DNA of 64,000 nt from Candidatus Saccharimonadota bacterium (GCA_034521515.1 JAXHMH010000002.1:24379-88378); one strand, 5' to 3'; shown: positions 3,357 through 56,682, counted from the stretch's first letter. Notes: generated from the sequence alone by a model not told the origin. Translations and numbers: made by a program.

Positions 3357-4203
3357 GTTGAAATTGTACAGTTGGAATGTCAACGGGATTAGGGCAGTAA
3401 TCAAAAAGGGGACTTTCCAAGACTTCGTAGCCCAACATCAACCCGACATTTTGTGCCTACAAGAAACCAAGGCAGAGCAGGGACAGGCCGAGATTGATCT
3501 GCCCGACTATGAAGAGTACTGGCACAGCGCAGACAAAAAAGGTTACTCTGGCACAGCAATCTTCACCAAAATAAAACCACTATCTATCCAAAACGGTTTA
3601 CCAGAAGACATTATCAAAAAATACGAGCTCGCGGCCGATGACTACGGCGACCCAAACAGTGAAGGCAGAGTTATCACTGCCGAGTTTGACGATTTTTACG
3701 TGGTGACTGTTTACACCCCAAACTCCAAAGACGATTTAAGCCGTGTTCCGCTCCGTCATAAACAGTGGGATCCAGCCTTCCTGGCATACTGCAAATCATT
3801 AGAAACCGGAGAGATTCGCTTGAGCGAGATGCACGATACGGCAGCTCATCACTCCGGAAAGCCGGTCGTGTTCTGTGGTGACCTAAATGTAGCCCATACC
3901 GAGGATGACCTGGCTCGCCCTAAAGAAAACCGTGGCAAAAAAGGCTTTACTGACGAAGAGCGCGAAGGTTTTGATAATTTCATTCATGCCGGTTTTATTG
4001 ATACGTTGCGACTTTTCAAGCAAGGCAACGGGCACTATACATGGTGGACACACTGGGCCAACGCGCGGGCACGCAACGTTGGCTGGAGGATTGATTACGT
4101 CCTGGTATCTGAGGCTTTAAAAAGCCGGGTTAAAAAAGCTGAGATCCACGCTGATGTCATGGGTTCAGACCATTGCCCAGTCAGCATAGAGCTTTCCAGT
4201 TAG
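3349..4203 (+). CDS. xth: exodeoxyribonuclease III (AP endonuclease, EEP fold)
   Basis: MSKLKLYSWNVNGIRA...PDILCLQETK...GDLNVAH...WRIDYVLVS...GSDHCPV, full-length ExoIII/APE1 motif set. Confidence 0.9.
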   Translation: MSKLKLYSWNVNGIRAVIKKGTFQDFVAQHQPDILCLQETKAEQGQAEIDLPDYEEYWHSADKKGYSGTAIFTKIKPLSIQNGLPEDIIKKYELAADDYGDPNSEGRVITAEFDDFYVVTVYTPNSKDDLSRVPLRHKQWDPAFLAYCKSLETGEIRLSEMHDTAAHHSGKPVVFCGDLNVAHTEDDLARPKENRGKKGFTDEEREGFDNFIHAGFIDTLRLFKQGNGHYTWWTHWANARARNVGWRIDYVLVSEALKSRVKKAEIHADVMGSDHCPVSIELSS

Positions 4204-4702: not shown

Positions 4703-5689
4703 ATGTCTGTAAAAAAATCAATCTATAAAACCGCCGAGTCAGTTAGCCCGGGGCACCCCGACAAACTATGCGATCAAATTTCTGACGCCATACTCGATGC
4801 TTACCTGGCTGAGGATGCCGACGCTCGAGTCGCCGTAGAAACTGTTGGCGGTCACGGCAAAGTTTTTATAACTGGTGAAGTGACTTCATCGGCCAAAGTT
4901 GACGTTGCGCCGATTGTTGAGCGGCTCGCGCCAGGCGTAGAGCTGGAAACACGTATCGTTGCCCAGAGTCCAGAAATCGCCCACGGCGTAGATACCGGCG
5001 GTGCAGGTGACCAAGGCATAATGGTAGGTTACGCATCGTCAGAAACGGACGAACTACTGCCACTGGAAGTCGTGCTAAGCCGCAGATTAAACCAAGCCCT
5101 TTATGAGCGCTTGCCTCACGACGGTAAAACGCAAGTAACCGTCCGCGATGGCGTCATACAGTCAATCGTAGCTAGCTTCCAAAACGCCCCACAACCTGAA
5201 CTCGAATCAGCAGTAAAGTATTGGCTCTCAAGTTCATCAACTATTACCTATGATCTATCAACTATCAATTTACACATTAACCCCGCCGGCGATTGGCACC
5301 AAGGCGGCTTTGACGCCGATGCCGGACTAACCGGCCGCAAACTCGTGGTAGACAACTACGGCCCCAGCGTGCCGATTGGTGGCGGCTGCTTTTCTGGCAA
5401 AGACCCCAGCAAGGTTGATCGTTCCGCCGCCTATATGGCACGCAAAATCGCCGTAGATTACTTGCGGGAGCGTAAAGCCCAAGAAGTGTTCGTGCACCTG
5501 GCATATGCCATAGGCTACAACCAACCACTAGAAGCAACTGTCACTATTGACGGAGCTCAAGAAGTTGTTGAGGGCTATGACCTAACGCCAGCCGGTATCA
5601 TCAAATCGCTCGATCTCAAACGGCCAATCTACGAACAAACCGCCCGCTTCGGCCACTTCGGCCACCCCAACTTTCCTTGGGAAAAATAG
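4703..5689 (+). CDS. metK: S-adenosylmethionine synthetase (compact, 328 aa)
   Basis: MSVKKSIYKTAESVSPGHPDKLCDQISDAILDA...GAGDQGIMVGYA...GGGCFSGKDPSKVDRSAAY...FGHFGHPNFPWEK; start set at ATG 4703 preceded by AAAGGAG. Confidence 0.95.
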   Translation: MSVKKSIYKTAESVSPGHPDKLCDQISDAILDAYLAEDADARVAVETVGGHGKVFITGEVTSSAKVDVAPIVERLAPGVELETRIVAQSPEIAHGVDTGGAGDQGIMVGYASSETDELLPLEVVLSRRLNQALYERLPHDGKTQVTVRDGVIQSIVASFQNAPQPELESAVKYWLSSSSTITYDLSTINLHINPAGDWHQGGFDADAGLTGRKLVVDNYGPSVPIGGGCFSGKDPSKVDRSAAYMARKIAVDYLRERKAQEVFVHLAYAIGYNQPLEATVTIDGAQEVVEGYDLTPAGIIKSLDLKRPIYEQTARFGHFGHPNFPWEK

Positions 5690-5838
5690 AAATAACATAG
5701 CCAGATACTCGTAATACCTTTGGTTAAAAGTTTCCGCGCTGTAGTAATACTATTAAGGTGGATTATGCGGGGGTTGCTGATAACTTCAAGAATCCTATTT
5801 CAACCTTCTTCGACAAAGTCTAGTGATATACTCCTAGC

Positions 5839-6267
5839 ATGAGCGAAAACACAGAAACCCCTCAGAAGCACTGGTGGTTGTATGTTTTGAAGCTGGAGCA
5901 GGGCAAGTTTTACGTTGGGATTACTTCTAAAACACCAGAAGAGCGGTTTCAGCAGCATGTTAACGGTTTTCTTGGTGCGCAGTGGACAAAAAAATATAAA
6001 CCAATTGAGCTAACCTACAAAGAGGACCTAGGTAACGTAACACTAGAGCAAGCTAAGCTAGCTGAAAATATGAAAATACGTATGTATATGAATATGTACG
6101 GTGATGAAAACGTACGTGGCGGCGACCTAAACTACAGTGGTAAGTATTTCTACAGGTTTGGGAGATTCCATCGTGATGAGGATTGGCAGATCGTGACTGT
6201 GATCCTTTTCCTATCGATTGTAATAACACTACTTTTGCTGGACAAGTTAGGGCTAGTTAGCTTGTGA
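5839..6267 (+). CDS. GIY-YIG domain protein with C-terminal TM helix
   Basis: WWLYVLKLEQGKFYVGITSKTPEERFQQH resembles the GIY-YIG N-terminal motif; hydrophobic tail IVTVILFLSIVITLLLL. Confidence 0.65.
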   Translation: MSENTETPQKHWWLYVLKLEQGKFYVGITSKTPEERFQQHVNGFLGAQWTKKYKPIELTYKEDLGNVTLEQAKLAENMKIRMYMNMYGDENVRGGDLNYSGKYFYRFGRFHRDEDWQIVTVILFLSIVITLLLLDKLGLVSL

Positions 6268-6673: not shown

Positions 6674-6827
6674 AAGTTTGGCAAAAAATCTGGTTGATAT
6701 GAGAGAAACTAGGCTGCAACACTTGTGATAATCATGCATACTTTTAAGTAGGCTTCTAATAAGAAGCTCTGTGTTTACGGCGAGCAGTAAAGACCGTAAA
6801 TATGCACCTAATAAAAGGGGAGGTTTC

Positions 6828-7961
6828 ATGGAATTAACACGTAAGAGCATACAAACTCTGCATAAAAGAACATCCGCCGGGCCTAAACTCAGCATTTACA
6901 TACCGACCCACCCAAAATCCAATAGTGCGTCGATTAACGAGGATAAAACTCGCCTCAAAAACGCCCTAAAAGCTATTGAAAACGACCCAAAATTCGACAA
7001 GCATGCTCATAAAAATATACTTAAGCCGCTTCATGACGTGCTTGATGATACGCAGTTCTGGAAGCACCAAGCTGTCGGGTTGGCACTGTTTGCCGATGCA
7101 AACGGCTTTGAGTTTATGCATTTGCCGCTTGAGCCGACCGAGGCTACGTATATTGATAAAGAGTTTGTCATCAGCCCGCTTATTATTATGCACAGCATAG
7201 CTACTGGGTTTTATGTACTAGACGTTAATTTATCCAGGGTTCGTTTACTAAAATCAGCTCATGGAACATTACATGAGATAGAAGACGCTCAATTACCAGA
7301 ATCATTCCAGGACAGGCTCGCTAACATGGAATATTCCTACGAGCTACAACACCAAGGCGCTCCAAAAGACAGCACTGGTAGTCGCGGTGATTTCCACGGG
7401 CATGAACCCGACGAAGCAATAGCAGACGATATCATAAAGTATTTACGTGATGTAGCTAGAGCAACTGATGCCTACTTATCCGGTCACGACAAACCGTTAT
7501 TACTAGCCGGAACCGAGAATAGAGTGGGTAATTTGCATAAATTTATCCACTACAAGCACACCCTGCCGCATGCTTTAACCGGCAATTTTGAGTCCCACAC
7601 GCCGCAGATGCTGCACGATGCAGCCACAGAAATCATCCAGCAACACCAGCAACATCAACGCGAGGAATTAGTGCAGAACTTGCTAGCAAGCGGCCCAGAA
7701 CACGTGGTCATGGGTCACTCCGAAATAACTGAAGCCGCTGCCGCCGATAGAGTTCAGCGACTGTACTTGCCAATTTTCCGTAATACCGCTGACAACGTAC
7801 GCACCGGCGATGTCCACTCTATCGTCTTGCAACTACCCAAAGCTATCAGCGAACTGGAATCAATGATTCGTTCGGTCATAAACCAAGCCGGCGAGGTGAT
7901 TGCCGTAGAGGTTGATGCCTATAAGGAGCTAGCCCAGCCCAAAGCCCTCTGCCGCTTTTAG
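6828..7961 (+). CDS. conserved hypothetical, resembles bacterial eRF1/Pelota-fold (baeRF-type) family
   Basis: Start at ATG 6828 after GGGGAGG. MELTRKSIQTLHKRTSAGPKLSIYIPTHP...TRLKNALK...DTQFWKHQAVGLALFADANGFEFMHLP...ISPLIIM...GFYVLDVNLSRVRLL follows the pattern I recall for baeRF-like proteins; not verifiable here. Confidence 0.55.
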   Translation: MELTRKSIQTLHKRTSAGPKLSIYIPTHPKSNSASINEDKTRLKNALKAIENDPKFDKHAHKNILKPLHDVLDDTQFWKHQAVGLALFADANGFEFMHLPLEPTEATYIDKEFVISPLIIMHSIATGFYVLDVNLSRVRLLKSAHGTLHEIEDAQLPESFQDRLANMEYSYELQHQGAPKDSTGSRGDFHGHEPDEAIADDIIKYLRDVARATDAYLSGHDKPLLLAGTENRVGNLHKFIHYKHTLPHALTGNFESHTPQMLHDAATEIIQQHQQHQREELVQNLLASGPEHVVMGHSEITEAAAADRVQRLYLPIFRNTADNVRTGDVHSIVLQLPKAISELESMIRSVINQAGEVIAVEVDAYKELAQPKALCRF

Positions 7962-8043
7962 GTATTAAAACTGATATCTTTTACCGACTCTCGGCTATTG
8001 ACCTCTAAAGTGGTTACGTAAAAACTGCTATACTGATGCCCAT

Positions 8044-9393: not shown

Positions 9394-9741
9394 GTGGAGT
9401 ACCATTTAAGAGAATACTGCGATTGTATCTGCTGGCTTTGACAGATTTTTAATCAGAAATATAGAGTCATTGCGCGTCACAGGCAGTTCAGGGCAAATGA
9501 GCGAAGAGCAATCAGATGCACGCAATTGATGGCTTCGAACATGGGGTTGCCCACGGTACTGGAACCGGCTGTATATCAGATCTTGGCAACAAGCAGAACT
9601 TAGCTAAAATTCGATACACCAATTCCAGGTGAAATCATGGAAAACGGTAGCAACATTGTCAAGCAGCAGTTAGCGAATCCGAAAGGACGATCAGACACCG
9701 ACCAAGCTGATGATCAGTACTAATCTTGCTACACTAGTATC

Positions 9742-12574: not shown

Positions 12575-13831
12575 ATGAACCCAAGCGATGAAAACCGAAC
12601 AAATGATAATCCTCTGTTTCAGCAACCACCCAAAAAGGACAAGGTGGTTGAGCCACTACATACAGAGCTGGAATCCAACGACCATAATAATACGGCCGTG
12701 ACTTTCATACGCGAAAAAATTAACAAACTTTACGCAACCGAACCATCAGCTCAGGAGGAACTAGAAGAAGCCGAAGCTGCCGACCGACACCGTTCGAAAC
12801 ACCAGCAATACATGCATCAATTAAGCACCTCCGGGAAGTCATTGGCAGAAATCCAAACCGCTTGGCACGAATATTACACCCAGCTCAGCGATAACGAAAA
12901 GCACCAGGTTTGGCAAGAATTTTACGAGCAGCACGGGAGAAGTGATTCATTCCACCCCCAACAACACTCACAATCATCAACACCAAGCTCGCAACACGAT
13001 ACACAACAAAGCCCTGCACCTCAGCAAAACCCAGCTGCAAAATCAGACAAACGAACCGTGTCTGACATAAAAGGGCAACTAATCGGAAGAGTAAGCAGCC
13101 GAGCTAAAGCACCAAAATCGGCACACGCTCGATCGCTCATGTTTGGACTTGGTATGGGAAGCCTGGTCATGGTGTTTATGCTGTTTGGGTTTTTTAATGA
13201 ACGGTTTATTGCGCCATTTATCACACCAAGCCAAACCGTTAGCTCTACTCCTATTATAGTTGACGATACAGAAGAAATCAGTGACGATCCGCTCGTCATT
13301 ATCCCCAAAATTAACGTAGAGGTTCCGGTTGTCTACGATGAGCCGTCTATAGAAGAGGACGCTGTTCAGCGAGCTTTGGAGCGTGGTGTCGTCCACTATG
13401 GTATAACGCCGAATCCCGGCGAGCGTGGCAACGCGGTAATTTTTGGCCATTCTAGCAACAACATCCTCAATAGCGGGAAATATAAATTTGCTTTTGTTAT
13501 GTTAAACCGCCTCAAGCAAGGGGACACCTTTATGCTGCACTATGAAGGCACGCGTTACGTCTATCGAATTTATGAAAAGAAAGTAGTGAGTCCAAATGAC
13601 TTATCGGTACTTGAGACACAAGATAGGCCGTCTACTGTATCTCTTATAACCTGCGACCCGCCAGGCACCAGCACCAACCGGCTCGTGGTGATCGGTGAGC
13701 AAATCACTCCTGATCCGGCCGAGAATATCGCCAGCTCAGTCACCCCGTCAACAACTTCAGAAGAACCGCCTATCTTACCATCAAATGCTCCGAGCCTATG
13801 GAGCCGCATAGTCGGCATGCTTTCAAGCTAG
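12575..13831 (+). CDS. sortase-family transpeptidase with long disordered N-terminal region and TM anchor
   Basis: C-terminal catalytic domain: NAVIFGHSS...TVSLITCDPPGTSTNRLVV (His and TLxTC-type Cys motifs); N-terminal ~190 aa Q/S/H-rich. Confidence 0.85.
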   Translation: MNPSDENRTNDNPLFQQPPKKDKVVEPLHTELESNDHNNTAVTFIREKINKLYATEPSAQEELEEAEAADRHRSKHQQYMHQLSTSGKSLAEIQTAWHEYYTQLSDNEKHQVWQEFYEQHGRSDSFHPQQHSQSSTPSSQHDTQQSPAPQQNPAAKSDKRTVSDIKGQLIGRVSSRAKAPKSAHARSLMFGLGMGSLVMVFMLFGFFNERFIAPFITPSQTVSSTPIIVDDTEEISDDPLVIIPKINVEVPVVYDEPSIEEDAVQRALERGVVHYGITPNPGERGNAVIFGHSSNNILNSGKYKFAFVMLNRLKQGDTFMLHYEGTRYVYRIYEKKVVSPNDLSVLETQDRPSTVSLITCDPPGTSTNRLVVIGEQITPDPAENIASSVTPSTTSEEPPILPSNAPSLWSRIVGMLSS

Positions 13832-13852
13832 AGAGTTTTTTAAGCGAAAAAT

Positions 13853-13878
13853 AAACGCGCCACTCGAGTGGCGCGTTT
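13853..13878. terminator. 26-bp palindrome family member (bidirectional terminator-like hairpin)
   Basis: aaacgcgccactcgagtggcgcgttt 22 nt after sortase stop; A-run/T-run arms. Confidence 0.5.
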
Positions 13879-14018
13879 ATTCCCCCTGCATCAAAAACAC
13901 AATAAAATACGTTCTTAACAATAGGAACATGCCAAGGTCAGACCTTGGCACAAAAAAAGATACAAGCTGTATCCTCGCTGCACAAGGAACGTCCTTGTAC
14001 AGTTTGTGGCACTAATTT

Positions 14019-14060
14019 CTGCACCCTACACCCTGAACCCTAAACCCTATACCCTATACC
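14019..14060. repeat. C-strand heptamer array (CCCTNNA)n, left flank of DUF1566 gene
   Basis: ctgcaccctacaccctgaaccctaaaccctataccctatacc; 14044-14060 is the exact reverse complement of 16118-16134. Confidence 0.9.
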
Positions 14061-14119
14061 TCAAACTGTCCACTGTTAACTGTAAACTATCCATTAAAAG
14101 ACCCGCATTGTCTCTTAGG

Positions 14120-15979
14120 CTAGCGTACCGGCCAGACGTAGTTGTTGAAGGTCTTGCCACGGGAGTTGGTGAGGCCGGCGCCCAGGTCTACGTGCCAGGC
14201 GTCAGACGTATTAGGAGCGTAGGTAGAAGACGACCAATACCAGGTGGGCACCAGACCAGAAAACGGATGGCCGACTGGGAGAGCTGGAGTAGAATGTTGG
14301 TGGCTCATAAGGCTGCGAAACTCACGGCGGCTTGGCAACCGCCAATCCCCAGCCACAGAGCCATCGGTAAGACTACAGCTTGCACTAGCTAGACCATTAG
14401 CGTCACTCAGGGCTTGTGTCCAGGTGCGTGTACCAAAACAGTTGGCGTCTTTGAGCCATATGAGCCCTGTCAGGTTGTCTGTCACTGTGCCATCACTGTT
14501 GTCAGTGAAGCGTGGGTCTGGCCATGCAAGACCCATCTGGTACTCACCATCTTGGCCAGTGCCAGCACAGGAGATGACGGTGCCACCTGCATCGTAGCAG
14601 GTATCTTGGCCGGTGGCAGCAGGTTGCGCTGGCCAGTCAGGTTCTACATCTGCAGCCGTTCCGGTTAAGTACCCCCACTCGCTACTGCATAACCCCCAGT
14701 AGGTCTGTCCGTCTAGGACATCACTTGGCTGAGCACAGTTGGTATCATCTACTGCTGGCATGACTCCCATGATGTCATTGAGGCTATACATGGTGGTGGT
14801 ACTTGGACCAGAAGTTGGACCAACAAAGCCGGTTTGGGTTAGTGCGGAGGTGCCGGTTGTAAGTCGGTTATAAATTTGGGTGAGGCTGGGCTTCTGTGAG
14901 GTAGGGCTATTTGGGCCGCTGGGTGGGGTGAGTTGAGCGTGGGCTACGCCACTGCGTGGCAGAAAACTCCCGAGCCGGGTCAGAAGTGAACGGTACCAAG
15001 TGGTAGAGCTAGCAAAGGCAGCATCTTCTAGGGTTGCTCCGCCATGACTGTTATCCATAGCAATATGGTCTGTGGGCGGATTGTGTGGCGCGAAAGCGAT
15101 ACTGGAGGTGCCACCGCGGACGGGCCAGACAGAGTGGTTGTTGGTCTTGCCGTAGTTTTCGGTGGTGCCATTATTATAGTACACAAACCAGGCACGAGAC
15201 GCATTCGGTACGTAGGTAGAAGACGACCAATAGTAGTAGTTTGTTACTACACCCGAAAACGGGTGGCCTGAGGGTATACGTGGTGCCGATGTTACACCTA
15301 AGTCTAGGAGTGATTCCAATTCATAAATGTTAGGCAACCGCCAATCCCCAGCCACAGAGCCATCCGTAAGACCACAACTTGCACTCGCGAGACCGTTAGC
15401 ATCACTCAGGGCTTGTTCCCAGGTGCGGGTACCAAAACAGTTAGCGTTCTTAAGCCATATCAGGCCAGTCAGGTTATCCGTCACGGTACCGTCAGCGTTA
15501 TCGGTAAAGCGTGGGCTGGCGGTTTCGCCCATTTGGTATTCCCCGTCTTGACCAGTGCCAGCACAGGATATAACACTACCAGCAGCGTCATAGCAGGTGT
15601 TTTGACCAGTAGCTGCGAGTCGAGCTGGCGAATTAAAGCTTGGGCCGAACCCACTGCCCGCGCACAAGCTCCAGTAGGTCGTACCGGGTATAACCTGGCT
15701 TGGCTCAGCACAATCCACGTCTGCTTCCGGCAACAGGCCGAACAGTTCATCCAGGCTGCACATTGGGGTGGTGTCGCCTGGGCCGGTGGTTGGTTCGGTG
15801 AAGGTTGCGACCATAGTACCGGCGGCTCCGGTTTCTAGGCGGTTGCATAGGTCATCTAGGGTGTAGCTTTGGCTGGATGGGTCGGTTGGTGGGGCTGGTG
15901 GGTTTAGGCTAGCAAACACGGCACCGCCGATACCAAGCAGTAGTACGGCAATCAGGATAGGGACTACCCGCTCGCCCAT
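14120..15979 (-). CDS. membrane-anchored surface protein with two tandem DUF1566 (Lcl C-terminal/C-type-lectin-like) domains
   Basis: N-terminal TM; twice repeated TGQ.TCYDA.G..ISCAGTGQDGEYQMG...RFTDN.DGTVTDNLTGLIWLK.ANCFGTRTW.QALSDANGLASASC.LTDGSVAGDWRLP...WSSSTY.PN...AW; visibly GC-richer than neighbours (not computed). Confidence 0.8.
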   Translation of the reverse strand: MGERVVPILIAVLLLGIGGAVFASLNPPAPPTDPSSQSYTLDDLCNRLETGAAGTMVATFTEPTTGPGDTTPMCSLDELFGLLPEADVDCAEPSQVIPGTTYWSLCAGSGFGPSFNSPARLAATGQNTCYDAAGSVISCAGTGQDGEYQMGETASPRFTDNADGTVTDNLTGLIWLKNANCFGTRTWEQALSDANGLASASCGLTDGSVAGDWRLPNIYELESLLDLGVTSAPRIPSGHPFSGVVTNYYYWSSSTYVPNASRAWFVYYNNGTTENYGKTNNHSVWPVRGGTSSIAFAPHNPPTDHIAMDNSHGGATLEDAAFASSTTWYRSLLTRLGSFLPRSGVAHAQLTPPSGPNSPTSQKPSLTQIYNRLTTGTSALTQTGFVGPTSGPSTTTMYSLNDIMGVMPAVDDTNCAQPSDVLDGQTYWGLCSSEWGYLTGTAADVEPDWPAQPAATGQDTCYDAGGTVISCAGTGQDGEYQMGLAWPDPRFTDNSDGTVTDNLTGLIWLKDANCFGTRTWTQALSDANGLASASCSLTDGSVAGDWRLPSRREFRSLMSHQHSTPALPVGHPFSGLVPTWYWSSSTYAPNTSDAWHVDLGAGLTNSRGKTFNNYVWPVR

Positions 15980-16097
15980 GAAGCTAAGTGTCTTTTTGGT
16001 AGCTGTGGCTAGTGTTTGTATTAACCGTTTGATAGTGGCTCCACTGTCTTGCTGTCTTACTGTCTTGCCTACTTGCTTATGGTAGGTAGTATAGCAG

Positions 16098-16245
16098 AGG
16101 GAAGGGCTAGGGTACAGGGTATAGGGTATAGGGTGTAGGGTGGAGACAGGGTTAAGGGTGAAGGGTTTAGGGTGGAGAGATTAGGATGAAATGTTCTGGG
16201 GTTTAGGGTTTAGGGTTGTGTGGGGGTATGGGGGCTAGGGGTTAG
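16098..16245. repeat. G-strand heptamer array (GGGTNNA)n with about 17 G-tracts, includes (TTTAGGG)2-3
   Basis: gggaagggctagggtacagggtatagggtatagggtgtagggtgg...gggttaagggtgaagggtttagggtgg...ggggtttagggtttagggttg...ggggtatgggggctaggggttag, about 120 nt upstream of the DUF1566 start codon. Confidence 0.9.
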
Positions 16246-16311
16246 AAGAAGCTCATGGTTACGAAAACACACAACTACTCGCATGTTTGGTAGACTCTGC
16301 TTCTTTTTGTG

Positions 16312-16340
16312 CTGCACCCTTCACCCTGTACCCTATATCC
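16312..16340. repeat. second C-strand heptamer array, direct repeat of 14019-14045
   Basis: ctgcacccttcaccctgtaccctatatcc versus left-flank ctgcaccctacaccctgaaccctaaaccc. Confidence 0.8.
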
Positions 16341-16466
16341 TACATATGTTGACATTGTACTAACACGCAGTTTCTTACAAAAATGCACATATGTGCAAAA
16401 TGGTAATTTCTAAAGTGAACTAGTTTGGAATAAAGATAAAGGGTGGTTGTTGACGTGAATAGCTGG

Positions 16467-17939
16467 TTAGTCTTCTACGATTAGACTAGCTCGGAGTAGG
16501 GCAGCTCTGTCGTTAATATCTGGGGCAGGAGCTATGGTAAACATCGCTTCATAGTCCCGATCAAAGAACGTACGGTACGAGCCATAGCTCGGAACTAACC
16601 CGTGTTGATTAGTGCCGTCAAAGTCAAACACATGAACATTACCATCGCTCACCAGATTCAAGCGATGTCCGTCCATCCAGGTCGCTTGACGCTGGTCTGG
16701 TACATCTAGATCTGTATCATAACGAGAAATAGCTTTCTTCTCGGCATCATACACTGCAAACTTACTGCCTGACTGAGCTGCAATCGACCGAGCATTGCCA
16801 GAAAACGAGACGTAGCGCGCATCATCAATCCGTAATATCGCCGCTGGAATAAGCGCCTTGTCCGGGTTTCTAGAAAGGGCATCGACCGGATTTTTATAGA
16901 CATAAATTTTCCCTTCTTTGGGCGTTCCAGCCACCACATACCAAGCCCCGTCATATCGAGCAATATCCAGTAAATTATTTTTAGCGTCAGCAAGCTCCTT
17001 TAGCTGATGTTTGCCGTTGCCGTCTAGTATATTCAAAGACACTGTCTCATTGTCTTTAGGATCAACAGCCGTATAAAGAACTACATCGTTACCGTGGGTG
17101 TGATACTGGTTAACATTTTGTAACACGAGTGTAGATTCCGGGTCTTGCAGTGTCCTGGTTCGCAACGTAAGATTCGCGCTGTTATATAAGTAAAACTCGT
17201 CGTGGCTCTTGTCTTTAAGCGTCACTTTGCTAAACGTTTGAGTAAACTCTGTACTCAAATTTACGCTATTGTTTGGTTGCTCACGATCTACCAAGACATA
17301 CTCTGTACCAGCATCAAACGTATGCTTCAACAGAACATGGCGGTTATTTGTTGACCACTCTACAAGCTCAATACGGCTGTTTTGACCTTTAGTAAACACA
17401 CCTTCCGGAATGAGTAATGCAGAGCTTGTAACCGTTTCACCACTTAGGTCAATCTCATCAAACACAGTCACGCTACTGGTGCGCTGCGCAAGCAACCATT
17501 GGCGATCGGGACTTTGCGTAATGAACCTAGGAGGTTGCGATCCATAAAGCTGCGCTACATTTGTATTGAGATTTTCAGGAAACAAGAAAGGGTATACAAA
17601 TCGTTGTATATTGCCACCACCGAGTAGGAAGCTACGGCTCCAATCTCTATAGCCCTCACGCCACAAATCAAGCGTGTAACTTCCCGCGGGGAGTACCATG
17701 CGTCGGTCGGTTGCTCCTTTATTTTCTCCGTTTAACATAACTTGGGCTGGTTCGGGTTGAGCGTCTACAAACAGCAAACCATTTTGGGTTATATCACCAG
17801 TGCGCAAGTTGTAATTATAGCCGTAAGCTTGAAAAAGCAGTAACGTCGCCAAACTCAATATCAAAACTGCCATCAGTCCGTAACCGATATAGAGCCTTAT
17901 TTTATGTGCACGTTTCTTTTTGGGGTCTAAAAAATCCAT
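16467..17939 (-). CDS. PEGA-domain membrane-anchored protein
   Basis: N-terminal TM then LLFVDAQPEPAQVMLNGENKGATDRRMVLPAGSYTLDLWREGYRDW (PEGA-like beta-sandwich motif), followed by large beta-rich domain. Confidence 0.7.
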   Translation of the reverse strand: MDFLDPKKKRAHKIRLYIGYGLMAVLILSLATLLLFQAYGYNYNLRTGDITQNGLLFVDAQPEPAQVMLNGENKGATDRRMVLPAGSYTLDLWREGYRDWSRSFLLGGGNIQRFVYPFLFPENLNTNVAQLYGSQPPRFITQSPDRQWLLAQRTSSVTVFDEIDLSGETVTSSALLIPEGVFTKGQNSRIELVEWSTNNRHVLLKHTFDAGTEYVLVDREQPNNSVNLSTEFTQTFSKVTLKDKSHDEFYLYNSANLTLRTRTLQDPESTLVLQNVNQYHTHGNDVVLYTAVDPKDNETVSLNILDGNGKHQLKELADAKNNLLDIARYDGAWYVVAGTPKEGKIYVYKNPVDALSRNPDKALIPAAILRIDDARYVSFSGNARSIAAQSGSKFAVYDAEKKAISRYDTDLDVPDQRQATWMDGHRLNLVSDGNVHVFDFDGTNQHGLVPSYGSYRTFFDRDYEAMFTIAPAPDINDRAALLRASLIVED

Positions 17940-18065
17940 AAATTGCGTATTAGACGTTACTTTGTCTATTGGTAGTATAGCGCCAAGAGAAGCGTTATGA
18001 AAGCAGGACTTTCCCAGATAGATACTAGGAACGACTTGCTCCTAACAACGGTTTAGGTTTAAGAT

Positions 18066-19196
18066 GTGTATACTAACTACAAAAAGAGGGTAAAAATTGT
18101 GGCTCAACGGCACAACATAATCGAAATTAACGGTAAGCAATATGATGCTTCGACCGGAAAGCCGATACAAACGTCTACAGCCAACAACCACGGCGTGGGT
18201 TCTCCTAAAAACCCAAATCAAAAAGCCGGTAACGTCGACGGCTTTACAAAGCGTCGCAACAAGCATACGACTTCTAAACAACCCCAAACTCCGCGTCAAC
18301 GTGCTACTACAACTGCTCGCGACGTACATAACAAACAACTCAAATCAAATACATTAATGCGACACGCGGTTAAAAAACCAGCGCAAGCTAGCCCTCATCA
18401 TGCAGAAAATAAATCGGATGTTACAAAAATCAACCCGGCGCAACAAACTAGCGCGCACAGCGAAAGAGCAGCTCGTGCGCATGCAGTTGCAAAGAGCAGG
18501 TTGGTAAGTAAGTTCGGTAGCGGGAACCCGTCACCGATCACTCAAACCGTAGAGAAGCTACCACTCAAGCAGCCACCTATCCATGCCGACCAACCTACGC
18601 CAAGTCATACTCCTCGGTTTCCAAAACAGACCCTGACGATAAGCCCTTTTGAAAAAGCCCTCAAAAGTGCAACTAGCCACGAGCAACCGCACGCTAAAAA
18701 GATTCCAAGGCGACACCACGTCGCTAGGAAGCTTCGCTTAAGCCCCAAAGCTATGAACATAAGCGCGGCACTACTCGTCGTCTTGATTGTAGGCGGATTC
18801 ATAGCTTATCGAAGCGCCCCCGGTATTGCTGTACACGTTGCTGCGACTCGTGCCGGAGTTCGGGCATCATTACCAAGCTACCAGCCAGCTGGGTTTTCAC
18901 TGCAAGGTCCAGTCCAATACAGTAGCGGGCAGATTGCCATAGGATACAAGTCAAACAGTGATGAACGGCAGTTCCGTCTCATTCAGCAGAAGACTGACTG
19001 GGATAGCCAAACTTTACTTAACAATTACATAGCAACCGAAACAAACCAGTACCAAACCTTCCAAAAAGGCGACAAAACTATATATATTTACGATGGTAGC
19101 AATGCTGCCTGGGTTAGCGGTGGTACCTGGTATCAAATTAAAGGCGAGTCAGCTCTAAACGCTGATCAATTAGTACGTATCGCTAGCAGCTTGTAA
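18066..19196 (+). CDS. membrane-anchored protein with disordered basic N-terminus; C-terminal DUF4367-like domain
   Basis: GTG start in track (alternative GTG 18099 after AGAGGG); TM ISAALLVVLIVGGFIAY; C-terminus ...QFRLIQQKTDWDSQTLL...TIYIYDGSNAAWVSGGTWYQIKG resembles DUF4367 (memory only). Confidence 0.65.
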   Translation: MYTNYKKRVKIVAQRHNIIEINGKQYDASTGKPIQTSTANNHGVGSPKNPNQKAGNVDGFTKRRNKHTTSKQPQTPRQRATTTARDVHNKQLKSNTLMRHAVKKPAQASPHHAENKSDVTKINPAQQTSAHSERAARAHAVAKSRLVSKFGSGNPSPITQTVEKLPLKQPPIHADQPTPSHTPRFPKQTLTISPFEKALKSATSHEQPHAKKIPRRHHVARKLRLSPKAMNISAALLVVLIVGGFIAYRSAPGIAVHVAATRAGVRASLPSYQPAGFSLQGPVQYSSGQIAIGYKSNSDERQFRLIQQKTDWDSQTLLNNYIATETNQYQTFQKGDKTIYIYDGSNAAWVSGGTWYQIKGESALNADQLVRIASSL

Positions 19197-19219
19197 TTTC
19201 GGTATTTTTGTGCTATAAT
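19191..19219 (+). promoter_or_regulatory. sigma70-like promoter candidate (TTGTAA-17-TATAAT, extended -10 TG)
   Basis: ttgtaa 19191-19196, 17-nt spacer, tgc-tataat 19214-19219, 6 nt before ATG 19226. Confidence 0.4.
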
Positions 19220-19225
19220 TTGCGT

Positions 19226-19561
19226 ATGTCAAAAGAGTATAGCGATGAATCCATCACTTCGGAGTCTGTTGATTGGAAAAAGACGTCTCGTAACATTTTG
19301 AGCGGCCTTGCTCTTGCCTGTGGTGCGTATTTCGGCGCACAAGCAATCAATGCAGATAGCGAAACGGCAGTGTCTACTGTGGACTTAGATATAACCCCAG
19401 GTGCAGAAACTCAGCAAATCCTGGAGTTAACAGCACAAGACCTTCATATTGCTGTGGCAGGCTTATCGTTGGCAGCAGGCGCAACAGGACTTGCGCCGTC
19501 ACTGCGAAGACAACAAGAAACTCATAGCGCTGATTATCAAAAAACCACAAGCCAAGCCTAG
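19226..19561 (+). CDS. small hypothetical membrane protein
   Basis: MSKEYSDES...; hydrophobic segment ILSGLALACGAYFGAQAI; start moved past the TATAAT box. Confidence 0.5.
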   Translation: MSKEYSDESITSESVDWKKTSRNILSGLALACGAYFGAQAINADSETAVSTVDLDITPGAETQQILELTAQDLHIAVAGLSLAAGATGLAPSLRRQQETHSADYQKTTSQA

Positions 19562-19603
19562 TAAAACTCGCACATCTACCCCTGTCGTGGTATGATTTAT
19601 GCA

Positions 19604-21097
19604 ATGACTAGGACACGATTCGCCCCCAGCCCAACCGGATTTTTACATGTTGGTGGTATTCGTACCGCTTTGTTTGCATGGCTCTTGGCGCGTCAAAATG
19701 ACGGTCAATTCATCTTACGCATAGAAGATACCGATAGAAAGCGTGAGGTTAGCGGAGCAGAGGCTCACATCATGGATAGCCTGAAATGGCTTGGTCTAGA
19801 TTGGGACGAAGGGCCGGACTCAGACGGTTCACATGGATCATACCGGCAATCAGAGCGACTAGACATCTACAAAAAATGGGCGCAGAAGCTCATTGACAGC
19901 GGACGAGCTTACGCCGACCCATACACCACAGCAGAAGTTCAGGCCTTCCGTGATGAGGCCATCAAGAATAAGCAGCCGTTTTTATACCGCAATCACCGGC
20001 CAAAAAAACCGCCAGCATGGGATGGCACAATGCCACTACGCTTTAAATCTAATCCGAAGTTTCTTTCAAACTGGGAAGGCGAAAACGCACCTGTAGTTGA
20101 TGAAGTTATGGGTGATAAAATGTTCAACAACTTAACTATTGACCCGGATACTACCGATGATGTTGTCCTCGTAAAGTCAGATGGTTTTCCTACCTACAAT
20201 TTTGCCCATATAGTTGATGATGCCGAAATGGAAATAACGCATGTATTAAGAGGCCAGGAATTTCTAAGCAGTATGGCAATTTATATGGATATTTATCACG
20301 CCCTTGGGTTGAAGGCACCGAAATTCGCGCACTTACCACATATCATGAACGAACAAGGCAACAAGAAACTATCCAAACGGGACGGCGCCAAAGACATTCT
20401 AGATTACGCCAGAGAAGGCTACTTACCAGAGGCGCTGGTCAGTTTTATCGCCACACTAGGCTGGAATGATGGCACAGAACAAGAAGTCTTTACGGTTAAT
20501 GAGCTGATCGAAAAATTTAGCCTAGATCGGGTACATAAAAGCGGTGCTCGGTTTGATGAGCGCCGATTACTGTGGGCCAATGGGCATTTCTTACGCCAAC
20601 TTGATATAAAAACGCTGTACGCACTATCAGTTGGCGAAAATTCAAAAACCAAATACCAGAGTACAGACTATTGGCCAGAAGAGGCCGAAGATGCCGATGA
20701 AGAATACAAAAAACAAGTGATTGGCTTAGTACAGGAGCGTCTGAAGTTCTTGGCAGAACTACCACAGCTAACTGAGTTCTTCTTTAAAGATTTACCGGTA
20801 AACCCAGAGCTTATCAGCAGCCATAAACAGCTTAAGAAGCTTGAAAAAGACGACTTAAAAACACTACTGCAAACCGCCCGGGAAGAGATAGCTCAAAGCG
20901 ATTTTACGACAGACGATTTACAGAACCGCCTCAATGCCTTACTAACTCTCACACACACTAAGCCTGCCGTGCTGTTTAGTCTAATCCGTATTGCTACCAC
21001 CCAAAGTCCGGCCAGCCCCGGGCTAGCTGAAACCATGACCGTACTCGGCCGCGAAACTACTCTGCGCCGTATTGATCAGCAACTACGTCTGTTGTAG
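19604..21097 (+). CDS. gltX: glutamate--tRNA ligase
   Basis: MTRTRFAPSPTGFLHVGGIRTALFAWL (HIGH-type), KLSKRDG (KMSKS-type); alternative ATG at 19592. Confidence 0.95.
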   Translation: MTRTRFAPSPTGFLHVGGIRTALFAWLLARQNDGQFILRIEDTDRKREVSGAEAHIMDSLKWLGLDWDEGPDSDGSHGSYRQSERLDIYKKWAQKLIDSGRAYADPYTTAEVQAFRDEAIKNKQPFLYRNHRPKKPPAWDGTMPLRFKSNPKFLSNWEGENAPVVDEVMGDKMFNNLTIDPDTTDDVVLVKSDGFPTYNFAHIVDDAEMEITHVLRGQEFLSSMAIYMDIYHALGLKAPKFAHLPHIMNEQGNKKLSKRDGAKDILDYAREGYLPEALVSFIATLGWNDGTEQEVFTVNELIEKFSLDRVHKSGARFDERRLLWANGHFLRQLDIKTLYALSVGENSKTKYQSTDYWPEEAEDADEEYKKQVIGLVQERLKFLAELPQLTEFFFKDLPVNPELISSHKQLKKLEKDDLKTLLQTAREEIAQSDFTTDDLQNRLNALLTLTHTKPAVLFSLIRIATTQSPASPGLAETMTVLGRETTLRRIDQQLRLL

Positions 21098-24031: not shown

Positions 24032-24177
24032 TAAATAAAATTATACGATAATTTACTCTGTTTTTCAAGCATAAGCTTAGTCTCAACAACTTTATTGCGC
24101 GTGGCATTTTTCGCCACAACGTATAGTTTATAGTCCTTGTGGTTGTGTGACAAACACTGCTACAATGTAGCCCATCT

Positions 24178-25439: not shown

Positions 25440-26978
25440 GTGGATAATTTTTCAAGACTCAAAAGCCATGTAAAGTCATTAATTTTAATTAGTCTGTTTA
25501 CGGTGGCGGCAGCTGGCATCGGCGGATCGTGGTTTTTAAATGAAATACTCGGCGTCAACCCGCTTTTGGCAGCAGCCGGAGGGCTTGGGCTCGTTGGAAT
25601 AACAAGTATTTTTGTAACACAAATTCTAACAGATTACGCGCTGCGTCCGTTGCAGTTTTTGCGCCAAGCAATATTACACGTTTCGCCTGAGCATAGCAGT
25701 GCTCCAGCTCCAAATCTGGAAACAATAAAGCCGGGTCGCGAGCTTGTGACAAGTCTAGCTCTTGAGGTATACCAGATGGCTAGCCAAGCTCAAGAAGGCA
25801 GCCAAGAAAACTCTGAACGCCTACAGAACGTTACACAATCGGCTCAAATAGTCAGCCACATGCCGCTACCGTTATTTGTGTTCAACAAAGAACAGCTTGT
25901 CACCAACGCTAGTGCCGCAGGGGTAGAGTATTGTGGAGTGAACAGCGCAGATATGTTCGGCAAACCCTTATATGACAGCGTTGATATGGAATTTCCAAAC
26001 GAGTTCACACTAGAAAAATGGATTACTGATTGTCAGGCCAACAAAGTTACCGACACCGCATATTGGGAGCGAGTTCGTATCAGAACCAAAGGCGATAAAG
26101 CCGAGCTGCGGCAATGCGACATGGCGGCTTATTACAACCGTGATAATCCAAGCGGTACAGAGTTTATTGTCACACTGTTCGACCGCACTGAAAGGTATAA
26201 CGTCGACGACCAATCACTCAGTTTTGTGGCTCTGGCTGTACACGAACTACGGACACCGCTGACAATTCTTCGAGGATATATAGAAGTTCTTGAGGACGAG
26301 CTTGGTAACTCCTCAGAGGAGATGGCTGGTTTTATGTATAAATTGCAAGTTTCAGCCAACCAGTTGACGGCCTTCGTGAACAACATACTGAACGTAGCCC
26401 GTGTCGAAGACAATCAACTCGTATTGAGTCTCAGCGAAGAAAAGTGGGATGAAGTTCTTGGCCATGCGGTAGACGACATGAAACTCAAGGCGCAAGTGCA
26501 CGGAAAAACGCTTGACTGCACAATAGCACCAAACCTACCAACAGTGGCAGTAGACCGTGTCAGTATTTATGAAGTCATCAACAACCTGATTGATAATGCC
26601 ATAAAATATAGCCAGGGTGCCGATAAAATTACTATAAAATCCGGACTCAGCAAAGGCGGATTGATAGAAACTACTATTACTGACTACGGGGTTGGAATAC
26701 CAGAAAGCGTCATGCCTAATCTGTTTGAAAAATTCTACCGGAACCACCGAACACGAGCTCAGATAGGAGGTACGGGTCTCGGCTTATACCTAAGTAAGGC
26801 CATAATCTCTGCTCACGGCGGTCAGATCTGGGCAAAATCCAAAGAAGGCGAGGGAAGCACGTTTGGTTTTAGTCTACTCCCATATGCGCAGCTAGACGAA
26901 CAGAAGAAGAGCGGTGACAAAAATATTGTACGCAACGCCCACGGCTGGATAAAAAATCACTCATTGTATAGACGATAG
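25440..26978 (+). CDS. sensor histidine kinase
   Basis: GTG start; 2 TM; H-box LAVHELRTPLT; N box NLIDNAIKYS; G boxes DYGVGIP, GGTGLGLYLSK. Confidence 0.9.
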   Translation: MDNFSRLKSHVKSLILISLFTVAAAGIGGSWFLNEILGVNPLLAAAGGLGLVGITSIFVTQILTDYALRPLQFLRQAILHVSPEHSSAPAPNLETIKPGRELVTSLALEVYQMASQAQEGSQENSERLQNVTQSAQIVSHMPLPLFVFNKEQLVTNASAAGVEYCGVNSADMFGKPLYDSVDMEFPNEFTLEKWITDCQANKVTDTAYWERVRIRTKGDKAELRQCDMAAYYNRDNPSGTEFIVTLFDRTERYNVDDQSLSFVALAVHELRTPLTILRGYIEVLEDELGNSSEEMAGFMYKLQVSANQLTAFVNNILNVARVEDNQLVLSLSEEKWDEVLGHAVDDMKLKAQVHGKTLDCTIAPNLPTVAVDRVSIYEVINNLIDNAIKYSQGADKITIKSGLSKGGLIETTITDYGVGIPESVMPNLFEKFYRNHRTRAQIGGTGLGLYLSKAIISAHGGQIWAKSKEGEGSTFGFSLLPYAQLDEQKKSGDKNIVRNAHGWIKNHSLYRR

Positions 26979-27091
26979 AGGATGGAAGGAAGAGTAAGGA
27001 GTAAAGAGATTCGAGACTTGAGATTTGATAAAACGAGCTATTCCAAACTCCATACTCCACACTCCAACCTCTAAGATGATAGAATAGCAGT

Positions 27092-27502
27092 ATGCAGCAA
27101 GATACAACACCAACGCCTCAGCCACAAACCGGCAAATCAGTTCTTTGTATTGAGGATGAACATTTTATTGGCGAGCTATACACTCGTGCTCTTACACGCG
27201 CCGGCTATGAAATTAACGTGGTTATTGACGGAGTTGAAGGATTAAAAGAAGCCCAGACAAACAAATACGACATCATATTGCTCGATATGATGGTGCCGAA
27301 TTTGACCGGTTTTGAAATTTTGAAACGACTGCGCGATCCATCAATAACCCCTAAGTTGGATGGCAAAATTATCATCACCACCAACCTGGAGCAGGGTGAT
27401 GAAGCCAAAGCCGAGATAGAAAATCAAGCTGACGGTTACGTCGTTAAAGCTGAAATAACCCCAAAACAGCTCGTTAAGTTCCTCGACCAACTCGACACCT
27501 AA
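27092..27502 (+). CDS. single-domain response regulator (receiver only)
   Basis: VLCIEDEHF...DIILLDMMVPNLTGFE...IIITTN...VVKAE; 136 aa, no output domain. Confidence 0.9.
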   Translation: MQQDTTPTPQPQTGKSVLCIEDEHFIGELYTRALTRAGYEINVVIDGVEGLKEAQTNKYDIILLDMMVPNLTGFEILKRLRDPSITPKLDGKIIITTNLEQGDEAKAEIENQADGYVVKAEITPKQLVKFLDQLDT

Positions 27503-29019: not shown

Positions 29020-29298
29020 ATGAATAATTCGATTCTTATTAACGAGCGGGTTGAGGTCATTACTGTGTTTCGGACGCACAGCAGTGAAGGCAGTATTTGC
29101 GTGCCCGCCAAAATGAAATACAAGAACCAGGAAATCTTGTTTACCGAGCTGGGGCTGCGGCACCCAACTTCCAAGGGTAAACGCATGGTTCATGTGTTTG
29201 ATATGAGTGATGGCGCCAACGATTACCGGCTAGAGTTCGACGCCGAGATGCTCACCTGGACACTAATTGCCATACTGGAGGGCCACTATGCAGCTTGA
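29020..29298 (+). CDS. small hypothetical protein translationally coupled to the Y-family polymerase
   Basis: 92 aa; its last 11 nt overlap the polymerase start (ATG 29288). Confidence 0.55.
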   Translation: MNNSILINERVEVITVFRTHSSEGSICVPAKMKYKNQEILFTELGLRHPTSKGKRMVHVFDMSDGANDYRLEFDAEMLTWTLIAILEGHYAA

Positions 29299-32598: not shown

Positions 32599-32863
32599 AA
32601 ATTTCTAGTGATGCGGGCGAAAGTGTTTACATTTTCGCACATATCCGAGAAATTTGTGCCTGATACCTTAGTATAAGGCCTCGTATAGCTTCAGGCCGGG
32701 ACAGCTACTATTTATATTTACTGGCTGTCTCGGCTTCGGCATATAATCTCGCTAATCGCTCGATTATCAGAACCGACGGTCGGTTTCTGCAAAATACTAA
32801 CATATTTTGCTGTCACCCTCTGGTCGCTTTTTTACTTTCAACTTTCAACTTTATACTTGATAC

Positions 32864-32882
32864 TATCAGCTGACAGCTGATA
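32864..32882. promoter_or_regulatory. 19-bp perfect palindrome, operator candidate upstream of the kinase/regulator pair
   Basis: tatcagctg-a-cagctgata, about 110 nt upstream of ATG 32991; preceded by tttcaactttcaacttt direct repeats. Confidence 0.3.
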
Positions 32883-36416: not shown

Positions 36417-36519
36417 AGTACGGAGTACATAGTACTGAGTACTTAGTGTAGAAACAGGCTGCATATACTTAGTGCTGGGTACTGTGTACTAACTACTCTT
36501 TGCTGTGTACTCTAGTGGT

Positions 36520-37803: not shown

Positions 37804-37867
37804 GACAATATTTTACCATCATTTATATCAGTTTACAATAATCGCTACCTCTGTTATACTGTTGTAA

Positions 37868-39424: not shown

Positions 39425-39530
39425 TGTTTGATATTTGAAGTTATCATCAGATTCTGCGGGACAAGTAGGCTATTTAAGTTCGCTTTGGATGCTACGCGGG
39501 CAGAATAGCGCCGCGCGAACCAAGCTATAC

Positions 39531-39559
39531 TTGATACTTTCTACTTTCTACTTGATACT
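39531..39559 (+). promoter_or_regulatory. promoter candidate TTGATA-17-GATACT placing the TSS at or near the pth ATG (possible leaderless mRNA)
   Basis: ttgata 39531-36, 17-nt spacer, gatact 39554-59, ATG at 39566; the motif tacttgatact occurs twice here and once at 32855. Confidence 0.3.
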
Positions 39560-39565
39560 TACCTT

Positions 39566-56606: not shown

Positions 56607-56682
56607 ATTATAGCAAGCATTAGCGTTTCTGTCAATCTTATGACTACCCTAGCTTATACCCTATCTTAATTTACCGCTGACA

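Follow-up and report, generated by a model that had tools for sequence, protein, structure and literature searches.

Tandem heptamers such as the STRR repeats of cyanobacteria and those of Beggiatoaceae and Geobacter lie mainly in intergenic DNA and are often found near the starts of genes that lack a canonical ribosome-binding site. Closer to the arrays described here, which surround the gene for a protein with Lcl_C/DUF1566 domains (the Lcl gene) in a 64,000-nt stretch of DNA from a Candidatus Saccharimonadota bacterium (GCA_034521515.1 JAXHMH010000002.1:24379-88378; 'the window' denotes this whole stretch, and coordinates count from its start), are the GGGNATC-type heptamer repeats of Xanthomonas (GGGAATC) and Nostoc (GGGGAYT), which are intergenic and mostly transcribed (Rehm et al. 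2015, PMC4692102). These repeats form G-quadruplexes (G4) in circular dichroism experiments, show a strand preference, i.e. G-rich in sense just after stop codons and in antisense just before start codons, and occur as 70-75 convergent inverted pairs per Xanthomonas genome, yet no function has been identified for them (PMC4692102). The function of the TAACTGA heptamer repeats of Beggiatoaceae (PMC4679880) and of the heptanucleotide elements of Geobacter (PMC2700814) is likewise unexplained. Our analysis suggests that the arrays around the Lcl gene are heptameric repeats of this known kind which arose locally, are constrained in their G-tracts and serve as structure-forming elements at gene boundaries flanking an inserted gene, a reading to which we give about an even chance of being correct.

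Read along their G-rich strand, the arrays consist of four paralogous modules of the form (AGGGTNN)n-AGGGTGSAG, here called A, B, L and R, which all share the ending AGGGTG(G/C)AG, plus extra G-tracts. Gene and modules are arranged as follows.

14120..15979, minus strand: Lcl gene, 619 aa, with an N-terminal transmembrane or signal segment and two modules of about 300 aa, each with a C-terminal Lcl_C/DUF1566 domain.
14019..14062, minus strand: module L, on the gene strand GAGGTAT (AGGGTNN)x5 AG.
14063..14088, minus strand: NNACAGT heptamers that keep the 7-nt phase of L and lead on towards the Lcl stop codon, up to a distance of 31 nt (Tandem Repeats Finder, period 7, and direct reading).
16098..16145, plus strand: module A, GAGGGAAGGGCT (AGGGTNN)x5 AG, with seven G-tracts; the best complement of L.
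16146..16177, plus strand: module B, 32 nt, which repeats A in tandem with 84% identity.
16198..16244, plus strand: blocks C and D, further G-tracts, GGGGTTTAGGGTTTAGGGTTG...GGGGGTATGGGGGCTAGGGG, G4Hunter score 1.39.
16312..16342, minus strand: module R, on the gene strand GTAGGATAT AGGGTAC AGGGTGA AGGGTGC AG.

Single modules contain between three and seven G-tracts and the central block contains 17; the orientation of L and R is opposite to that of A and B. Much of this anatomy had been outlined in the original prediction, made from the sequence alone, and on re-examination it holds: the 619-aa two-domain DUF1566 gene is confirmed at 14120..15979 on the minus strand, C-strand CCCTNNA heptamers lie at 14024-14058 (left array) and at 16317-16337 (a third, short array), and the 17 G-tracts (at least three G, 4-nt spacing) are present at 16098-16245, with G-strand arrays at 16110-16144, 16149-16176, 16199-16219 and 16224-16244. 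The left and the third C-strand arrays are direct repeats of each other (14019-14049 and 16312-16342, 31 nt, 87% identical), and the 17-bp perfect inverted repeat is real, with 14044-14060 being the exact reverse complement of 16118-16134; between L and A, this inverted repeat reaches 24 nt at 96% and 44 nt at 84% identity, and A/B and R are inverted over 30 nt at 87%, with a spacing of 134-166 nt. With at most one mismatch allowed, GGGTNNAGGGTNNAGGGT has 12 matches in the window, every one at the Lcl locus, and none in 100 shuffles. GGGTATAGGGTATAGGGTTTAGGGTTCAGGGT is an example oligonucleotide sequence for the G-rich modules L, R and A. The interpretation that came with the original prediction, taken overall, is partly supported, as detailed below.

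Like the repeats of Xanthomonas and Nostoc, those at the Lcl locus are 7-nt units with a G3-4 tract, a partly variable rest and about four or more tracts, and they are intergenic and obey the same strand rule relative to open reading frames (ORFs): L is G-rich on the sense strand, 59 nt past the Lcl stop codon in the 3' untranslated region (UTR) and ahead of the terminators, R is G-rich on the sense strand 125 nt past the stop codon of the neighbouring PEGA-domain gene, and in A-D the G-rich strand is the Lcl template strand, 119-265 nt ahead of the ATG. Also shared is a convergent inverted pair (A/B with R), the stem-loop of which could compete with G4. In its unit, the number of tracts, the position between genes, the strand rule and the inverted pairs, the locus fits the class of G-rich heptameric repeats. 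It differs from the described members in its core, AGGGT with two hypervariable positions, in the distance of L and R from the stop codons (59-125 nt, as against positions within 50 nt of ORFs), and in a small-genome Saccharibacterium host, where the arrays surround an inserted gene and G4 are predicted from sequence. Moreover, the Xanthomonas repeats are one family at about 180 sites, whereas here there is one locus in 64 kb. Noteworthy are the hypervariable dinucleotide, the four modules around an inserted gene, the host phylum and an abutting extended -10 promoter.

A second class of structured intergenic DNA also invites comparison. Enterobacterial REP/BIME elements have been connected with the protection of mRNA 3' ends and with termination, and they serve as targets for insertion. 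Like these, the arrays are short structured extragenic repeats, direct and inverted, at gene ends; REPs, however, are imperfect palindromes in genome-wide families mobilized by RAYT transposases, whereas the Lcl locus has heptamer arrays, with no such enzyme or family seen in the window.

The two parts of the heptameric unit have diverged very differently. Among 25 phased units, the core AGGGT shows mismatches at 9 of 125 positions as opposed to 28 of 50 at NN (Fisher p = 1e-11), where 11 different dinucleotides occur. A conserved core combined with a variable NN fits neither fresh slippage nor neutral decay, and this contrast is sequence-level evidence that selection acts on the G-tracts and not on whole units. 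It bears directly on the view that the arrays do nothing and are a neutral by-product of heptamer slippage that filled unusually long new non-coding DNA around the gene. The array-bearing stretches are indeed the two longest intergenic ones near the gene, this genome makes heptamer arrays at many sites, each with a private core that often comes from local signals (-10-like or Shine-Dalgarno-like units), and the over-representation of heptamers in bacteria has been ascribed to polymerase slippage (PMC4692102, discussion). Decay, however, should strike all seven positions equally, whereas the core diverges by 7% and NN by 56%; recent slippage would have left identical dinucleotides; and the strand arrangement relative to ORFs is the same as in other phyla. 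We therefore regard a purely neutral origin as rather unlikely.

Heptamer arrays are a tendency of this genome as a whole. With an array defined as at least four phased copies of a 4-mer, the window contains eight at period 7 and none or one at periods 5, 6 and 8-11, and in 1.28 Mb of relatives, i.e. the PEGA-ortholog loci from 80 Saccharimonadales species, there are 11 at period 7 as opposed to 0-5 at other periods. Bulk intergenic autocorrelation at lag 7 is weak (0.280 versus 0.260-0.271), the effect being carried by discrete arrays. A period-7 run in metK (5241-5265) was set aside as coding sequence and probably due to chance. Further arrays in the window are the following.

26980-27071: GGAGTAA / ACTCCAN, inverted pair between a histidine kinase gene and that of its response regulator.
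32828-32865: intergenic array upstream of a histidine-kinase gene.
36417-36497: AGTACNN, intergenic inverted pair.
39525-39562: TACTTNN, intergenic array between the -10 box and the ATG of pth.

Where inverted heptamer arrays form the arms, long, imperfect hairpins are predicted (26975-27095 and 36412-36510, z -3.0 and -4.8, respectively). The hairpin between kinase and regulator is lineage-specific, as in relatives both genes abut, and units resembling Shine-Dalgarno (SD) sequences occur at 26980-27025; the arms of this hairpin look like repeated SD and anti-SD sequences, and a leaderless-type promoter follows. In the arrays at 32828-32865 and 39525-39562, the units are -10-like (TATACTT, GATACTT, CTACTTT), which suggests that such arrays arose by slippage of promoter sequence itself. 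Array hairpins with private cores are also found in relatives, with free energies of -46 and -37 at two loci (L004 and L008). In another Saccharimonadales genome, 11 perfect copies of GCTAACG stand between gltX and a DUF4367 gene (locus L033, 279-353), a fresh expansion. As private cores often derive from local signals, local slippage rather than a dispersed mobile family would be at work. The window also encodes a Y-family DNA polymerase with IMS domains (29267-30544, plus strand), which has the highest GC content at the third codon position (GC3) of the window (0.617) and is possibly relevant to slippage or template switching.

The non-G arrays of the window (TACTTNN, AGTACNN, NNACAGT) are similar to the heptamers of cyanobacteria (STRR), Beggiatoaceae and Geobacter; those, however, form one or few genome-wide families, whereas here every locus has its private core and many arrays are inverted hairpin pairs. 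The GGGT core itself was found at no other site in the 64 kb or in the 1.28 Mb of relatives. The original prediction had named the presence of the same arrays at unrelated sites as evidence for a generic repeat, and the answer is divided: the architecture recurs with other cores at four or more unrelated intergenic sites in the window and, with AGGGTNN itself, in an Omnitrophota contig, but within the window and the relatives the GGGT core is confined to this locus.

A scan of metagenomes for three consecutive AGGGTVN units gave at least 120 stretches; among the matches listed, most are eukaryote-type telomeric or subtelomeric contigs and perfect microsatellites, and the non-telomeric ones include close inverted pairs of a G-array and a C-array in many unrelated bacterial and phage contigs. 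The clearest of these contigs (L110) carries inverted AGGGTNN / ACCCTNN pairs (3887-3920, 4715-4800 and 5852-5946, one array apparently inside the queA reading frame) between queA and the genes for a SpoIID-domain protein and a PEMT-family methyltransferase, with tgt, queH and ruvB nearby, and can be assigned to Omnitrophota, as its RuvB shares 83% identity with the one encoded in a metagenome-assembled genome (MAG) of a Candidatus Omnitrophota bacterium. Among the non-telomeric matches listed from metagenomes and viruses (loci L085-L272), the G arm lies 5' of the C arm in 19 close pairs and 3' of it in three (p = 0.0009), an order which reads identically on both strands and is also shown by the A/B...R pair at the Lcl locus. 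This 19:3 bias argues for constraint and thus further against arrays that do nothing. None of the contigs among the metagenomic and viral matches listed carries relatives of ten tested window proteins, including Lcl, PEGA and sortase; the 68 matches in viral contigs, mostly perfect heptamer microsatellites, include none related to this locus.

What structures could the modules form? The suspected G4 potential is real as far as the type of sequence is concerned, but it is only moderate, with G4Hunter scores of the arrays of 1.2-1.4. Canonical motifs of four G3 tracts with N1-7 spacers are, in the 64 kb, all located at this locus, except for one within the Lcl gene. Folding of the minus strand of 15980-16466 pairs R with A in the minimum-free-energy structure (z -2.26), and for the region downstream of the Lcl gene (13832-14119, minus strand) a free energy of -104.8 is predicted (z -6.35). 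The predicted RNA duplex of L with A has -67 kcal/mol as compared with -32 +/- 4 for shuffled sequences, and the duplexes L:B (-43.5), R:A (-41) and R:B (-34 kcal/mol) are also all well past their shuffled controls. R:A pairing leaves a 166-nt loop and lacks a T-run, i.e. it does not show the compact hairpin plus U-tract of an intrinsic terminator, and an Rfam search gave nothing but sub-threshold chance matches to terminator-like small RNAs. The window encodes a PIF1-like helicase (59245-60777, minus strand; PF05970, E 1e-34, plus a Pif1 2B domain). Pif1 helicases are known G4 unwinders, which makes this protein a candidate for resolving the G-rich arrays of such a small genome.

That the gene between the modules was acquired follows from its surroundings, which comprise the following conserved genes.

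12575..13831, plus strand: sortase gene (Pfam Sortase, E 4e-25), conserved left neighbour of the insertion.
16467..17939, minus strand: PEGA-domain gene (Pfam PEGA), the conserved neighbour on the right; 80 Saccharimonadales species have an ortholog.

In 64 of the 80 related species, the sortase gene is convergent with and directly downstream of the PEGA gene, with a gap that does not exceed 150 bp in 47 of the 64 and has a median of 70 bp (an upper bound) but measures 2,635 bp here, and none of the 80 related PEGA loci contains an Lcl homolog. As judged from gene order, the Lcl gene is thus a lineage-specific insertion at the conserved PEGA-sortase junction; the best PEGA homolog in any collection searched is 53% identical, so that these comparisons are made at species distance. 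The idea of an acquired gene is therefore borne out by synteny over 80 related loci and not by composition, which alone would not prove an insertion. The gene had been called compositionally foreign, and it is GC-richer than its neighbours (0.556, the highest of 50 ORFs with a mean of 0.468 and a standard deviation of 0.028), but its foreignness is weak: the excess resides mostly in codon position 2 (0.569), because the protein is rich in Gly, Ala, Pro, Thr, Ser and Trp, GC3 is 0.539 as compared with a window mean of 0.452 +/- 0.056 (z 1.5), and its codon usage places it outside the six most deviant genes of the window.

The protein, annotated by NCBI as a DUF1566 domain-containing protein of a Candidatus Saccharibacteria MAG, where its gene is part of a 706-kb contig, matches Pfam PF07603 (Lcl_C/DUF1566) with two domains (E 3e-52, 176 bits, gathering cutoff 34.9) and is an internal tandem duplication of the ~300-aa module, the copies of which are 58% identical at the amino acid level; at the DNA level, 183-nt segments about 1 kb apart are 85% identical. 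No relative with a solved structure was found by sequence. Elsewhere, its closest homologs share 38% identity across the full length and 50-61% within a single domain, and the few that are named by organism come from Deltaproteobacteria, Desulfobacterales and Acidobacteria. That the arrays were imported together with the gene was considered and rejected, as seven loci of the closest available Lcl homologs have no period-7 arrays. Exact look-ups of the Lcl and sortase proteins gave no match. The PEGA protein is also encoded on one 3.6-kb Logan contig, identical to 16378-19993 of the window, which stops 36 nt short of R; since its opposite end lies inside gltX, the breaks of this contig are uninformative about repeat heterogeneity.

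The junction between PEGA and sortase genes carries lineage-specific inserts in several relatives (loci L074, 11485-12204; L079, 11443-12043; L080; L040; L042; L043, 2296-5506; and L058, 2480-11241), which range from small putative membrane or secreted ORFs to inserts of 3.2 and 8.7 kb. The junction is therefore a variable spot and looks like a recurrent insertion spot. No heptamer arrays are present in those relatives' inserts.

Are the modules then a substrate for recombination or the boundary of a cassette, sites at which the gene was captured and which would allow its inversion (between L and A) or deletion (between L and R)? In a concrete form, the gene would have inserted in the loop of a pre-existing L:A array hairpin and parted its arms. 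The geometry is suggestive in that L and A, the best-matching pair by identity as well as by duplex energy, exactly bracket the gene together with its -10 box, the direct repeats L and R bracket the gene plus A and B, compact array hairpins with loops of 13-20 nt exist at other junctions of this genome, and the PEGA-sortase junction has taken up other inserts in relatives. Against it stand the absence of a Pfam match to a recombinase, integrase or transposase among about 48 scanned window ORFs, some of which match no Pfam family at all, the absence of a visible target-site duplication beside L, A or R, and the lack of a second copy of module or gene in the window or the relatives, whose inserts at the same junction are devoid of arrays. 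Furthermore, RecA would have identity tracts of just 17-24 bp to act on, which is marginal, and the ACAGT heptamers extend L in phase towards the gene, a pattern more easily reconciled with growth in place than with a sharp boundary of insertion. Ends resembling terminal inverted repeats, CT(G/C)CACCCTACACCCT, are 15/16 identical, with no transposase, flank duplication or further copy in the window or relatives, and an invertible switch of the fim/hin type is not apparent either, as gene and -10 box both lie inside the L/A inverted repeat and would be uncoupled by no inversion. The proposal that the arrays are recombination or inversion sites or the ends of a mobile cassette thus finds neither an enzyme of the recombinase type nor a target-site duplication, and we consider recombination through the modules unlikely, though a possibility of some weight.

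A role at the boundaries of transcription units has to be viewed against the signals present, which are the following.

16088..16096, minus strand: extended -10 box TGCTATACT, identical to the promoter type used by this genome; it adjoins module A directly and precedes the Lcl ATG by 108 nt.
16043..16074, minus strand: three 8-nt repeats, in sense AAGACAGN, in the putative 100-nt Lcl leader.
13850..13881, no strand assigned: perfect 16+16 bp palindrome with T-rich tails (repeat search and fold).
13928-13952, 13952-13976 and 13978-14002, minus strand: three hairpins in the Lcl 3' region (fold and terminator scan).
16379..16400, minus strand: present PEGA terminator, a small hairpin TGCACATATGTGCA followed by T5 (terminator scan, which places the canonical terminator at 16384-16397).

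Extended -10 motifs (TGnTAnAnT) are located 6-11 nt ahead of the start codons of six other window genes, at 5824-5832, 8026-8034, 9727-9735, 24158-24166, 27077-27085 and 37852-37860, and a seventh, at 56607-56615, directly abuts an annotated start. SD-like motifs precede only 9 of 49 window ORFs, and together these patterns indicate that many mRNAs of this Saccharibacterium are probably leaderless. With TGCTATACT at 16096-16088 on the minus strand as a credible Lcl promoter, the Lcl mRNA would have an unusual 100-nt leader, and no SD-like motif is found upstream of the Lcl ATG. A sigma-70 consensus scan was discarded as a means of finding the Lcl promoter because it gave no match, whereas the genome's own extended -10 motif found one. 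Repeat-length-dependent tuning of the promoter, also suggested in the original prediction, is neither favoured nor disfavoured; extended -10 promoters are independent of -35 spacing. The TATACT box had been placed correctly by the original prediction (16093-16088, minus strand), and module A does abut a genuine-looking extended -10 element; from this box the prediction had placed the array in the -35/UP position. The leader repeats AAGACAGN have ACAGT in common with the NNACAGT heptamers of the 3' UTR. On the plus strand, a promoter-like TGGTAGACT (16288-16296) separates the G arrays from R; it points through R into the 3' end of the PEGA gene, so that an antisense transcript could possibly start there.

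At the other end, the middle hairpin of the Lcl 3' region (13952-13976), GATACA-GCT-TGTATC followed by T7, is a canonical intrinsic terminator, and the palindrome at 13850-13881 probably represents the native terminator, acting in both directions, of the convergent sortase and PEGA genes. This layout also bears on a long-range RNA pairing, in which the C-rich A/B in a long 5' leader and the G-rich L of the 3' UTR would form a duplex that closes the ends of the mRNA, R would pair with the other C-rich module, and stability or translation of this SD-less mRNA would thereby be controlled. L:A and R:B duplexes would be strong and non-crossing, L lies within the transcript ahead of the terminators, and the lack of an SD-like motif would fit. 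The only good promoter match, TGCTATACT, is downstream of A, however, such that A and B would be reached only by transcription that runs on from PEGA through its terminator, and no promoter-like site was found on the minus strand upstream of the arrays, which makes such pairing very unlikely.

G4-dependent variation as in Neisseria pilE had also been put forward. In pilE, variation requires silent pilS donors and a G4-associated small RNA promoter. As in pilE, G4-capable tracts are situated upstream of a surface-protein gene, and the two 58%-identical modules in Lcl could recombine with each other; yet pilE has a single 16-nt G4, whereas here repeats flank the gene on both sides and no donors exist in the window. 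A tblastn search of the window for silent Lcl cassettes finds the gene itself only, and there is no match in the 80 related loci, so this claim is not sustained by any second Lcl-like sequence. Heptads with a conserved 5-nt core, direct and inverted, next to a promoter could alternatively be operators for a dedicated repressor, similar to those of the omega protein of inc18 plasmids, but there is no adjacent candidate regulator of the ribbon-helix-helix type, the unrelated cores of the other arrays mean that no single binding protein explains the class, and the G-strand arrangement is generic, as it is seen at housekeeping genes of other phyla. Antigenic variation of the pilE type or a repressor-operator system we therefore hold to be extremely unlikely.

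In the interpretation we favour, boundary elements of local origin, heptamer slippage, which is strong and local in this genome, would generate arrays, and local copying in direct and inverted orientation would multiply the modules, the cores of which would be kept constant because the G-tracts matter. R with A/B may then form a long imperfect hairpin or, alternatively, G4 or i-motif structures between the co-directional PEGA and Lcl genes. As their most likely effect, the arrays would insulate against or pause read-through transcription and stabilize 3' ends, programmed recombination being an unlikely one. What the analysis shows is the anatomy of the locus, the insertion, the general heptamer tendency, the paralogy of the modules and their complementarity, the conserved core, the strand rule shared with other phyla and a sequence of the G4 type; from these we infer that structures form in vivo and that the arrays affect transcription. 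Several observations weigh against this interpretation. The confinement of the GGGT core to this locus leaves membership in a genome-wide family unproven. The R:A hairpin with its 166-nt loop has no U-tract, and PEGA and Lcl have canonical terminators of their own. G4Hunter scores reach only 1.2-1.4, and the conserved A and T beside the G-tract are unexplained by G4 alone. The strongest complementarity (L:A, -67 kcal/mol) connects modules 2 kb apart, although a boundary-structure model needs none between them. Finally, since arrays with non-G cores exist, G4 cannot explain the heptamer arrays of this genome in general.

A further-reaching version, which we consider distinctly improbable, would be that heptamer-array hairpins are built by an active lineage-specific process (a private 5-nt core, two hypervariable positions, the purine- or G-rich arm 5'), that one of them captured a foreign adhesin gene in its loop, and that its arms now act as a G4/hairpin switch which insulates the gene. 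Elsewhere in the window, a gene for a baeRF-family protein (bacterial archaeo-eukaryotic release factor; 6771-7961, plus strand) adjoins that for a GIY-YIG protein.

Overall, the strand rule of the Xanthomonas and Nostoc repeats, which recurs in a Saccharibacterium, and the AGGGTNN pairs of an Omnitrophota contig suggest a conserved physical role of such repeats at gene boundaries. With four modules on one gene and a promoter abutting one array, the locus is a compact test case. For the biology of the Candidate Phyla Radiation (CPR), it represents the lineage-specific gain of an adhesin-type protein within a sortase/PEGA surface-protein cluster; and, if true, capture of a gene in a hairpin loop whose arms then insulate it would add a new way in which CPR bacteria with small genomes acquire genes and insulate their transcription.

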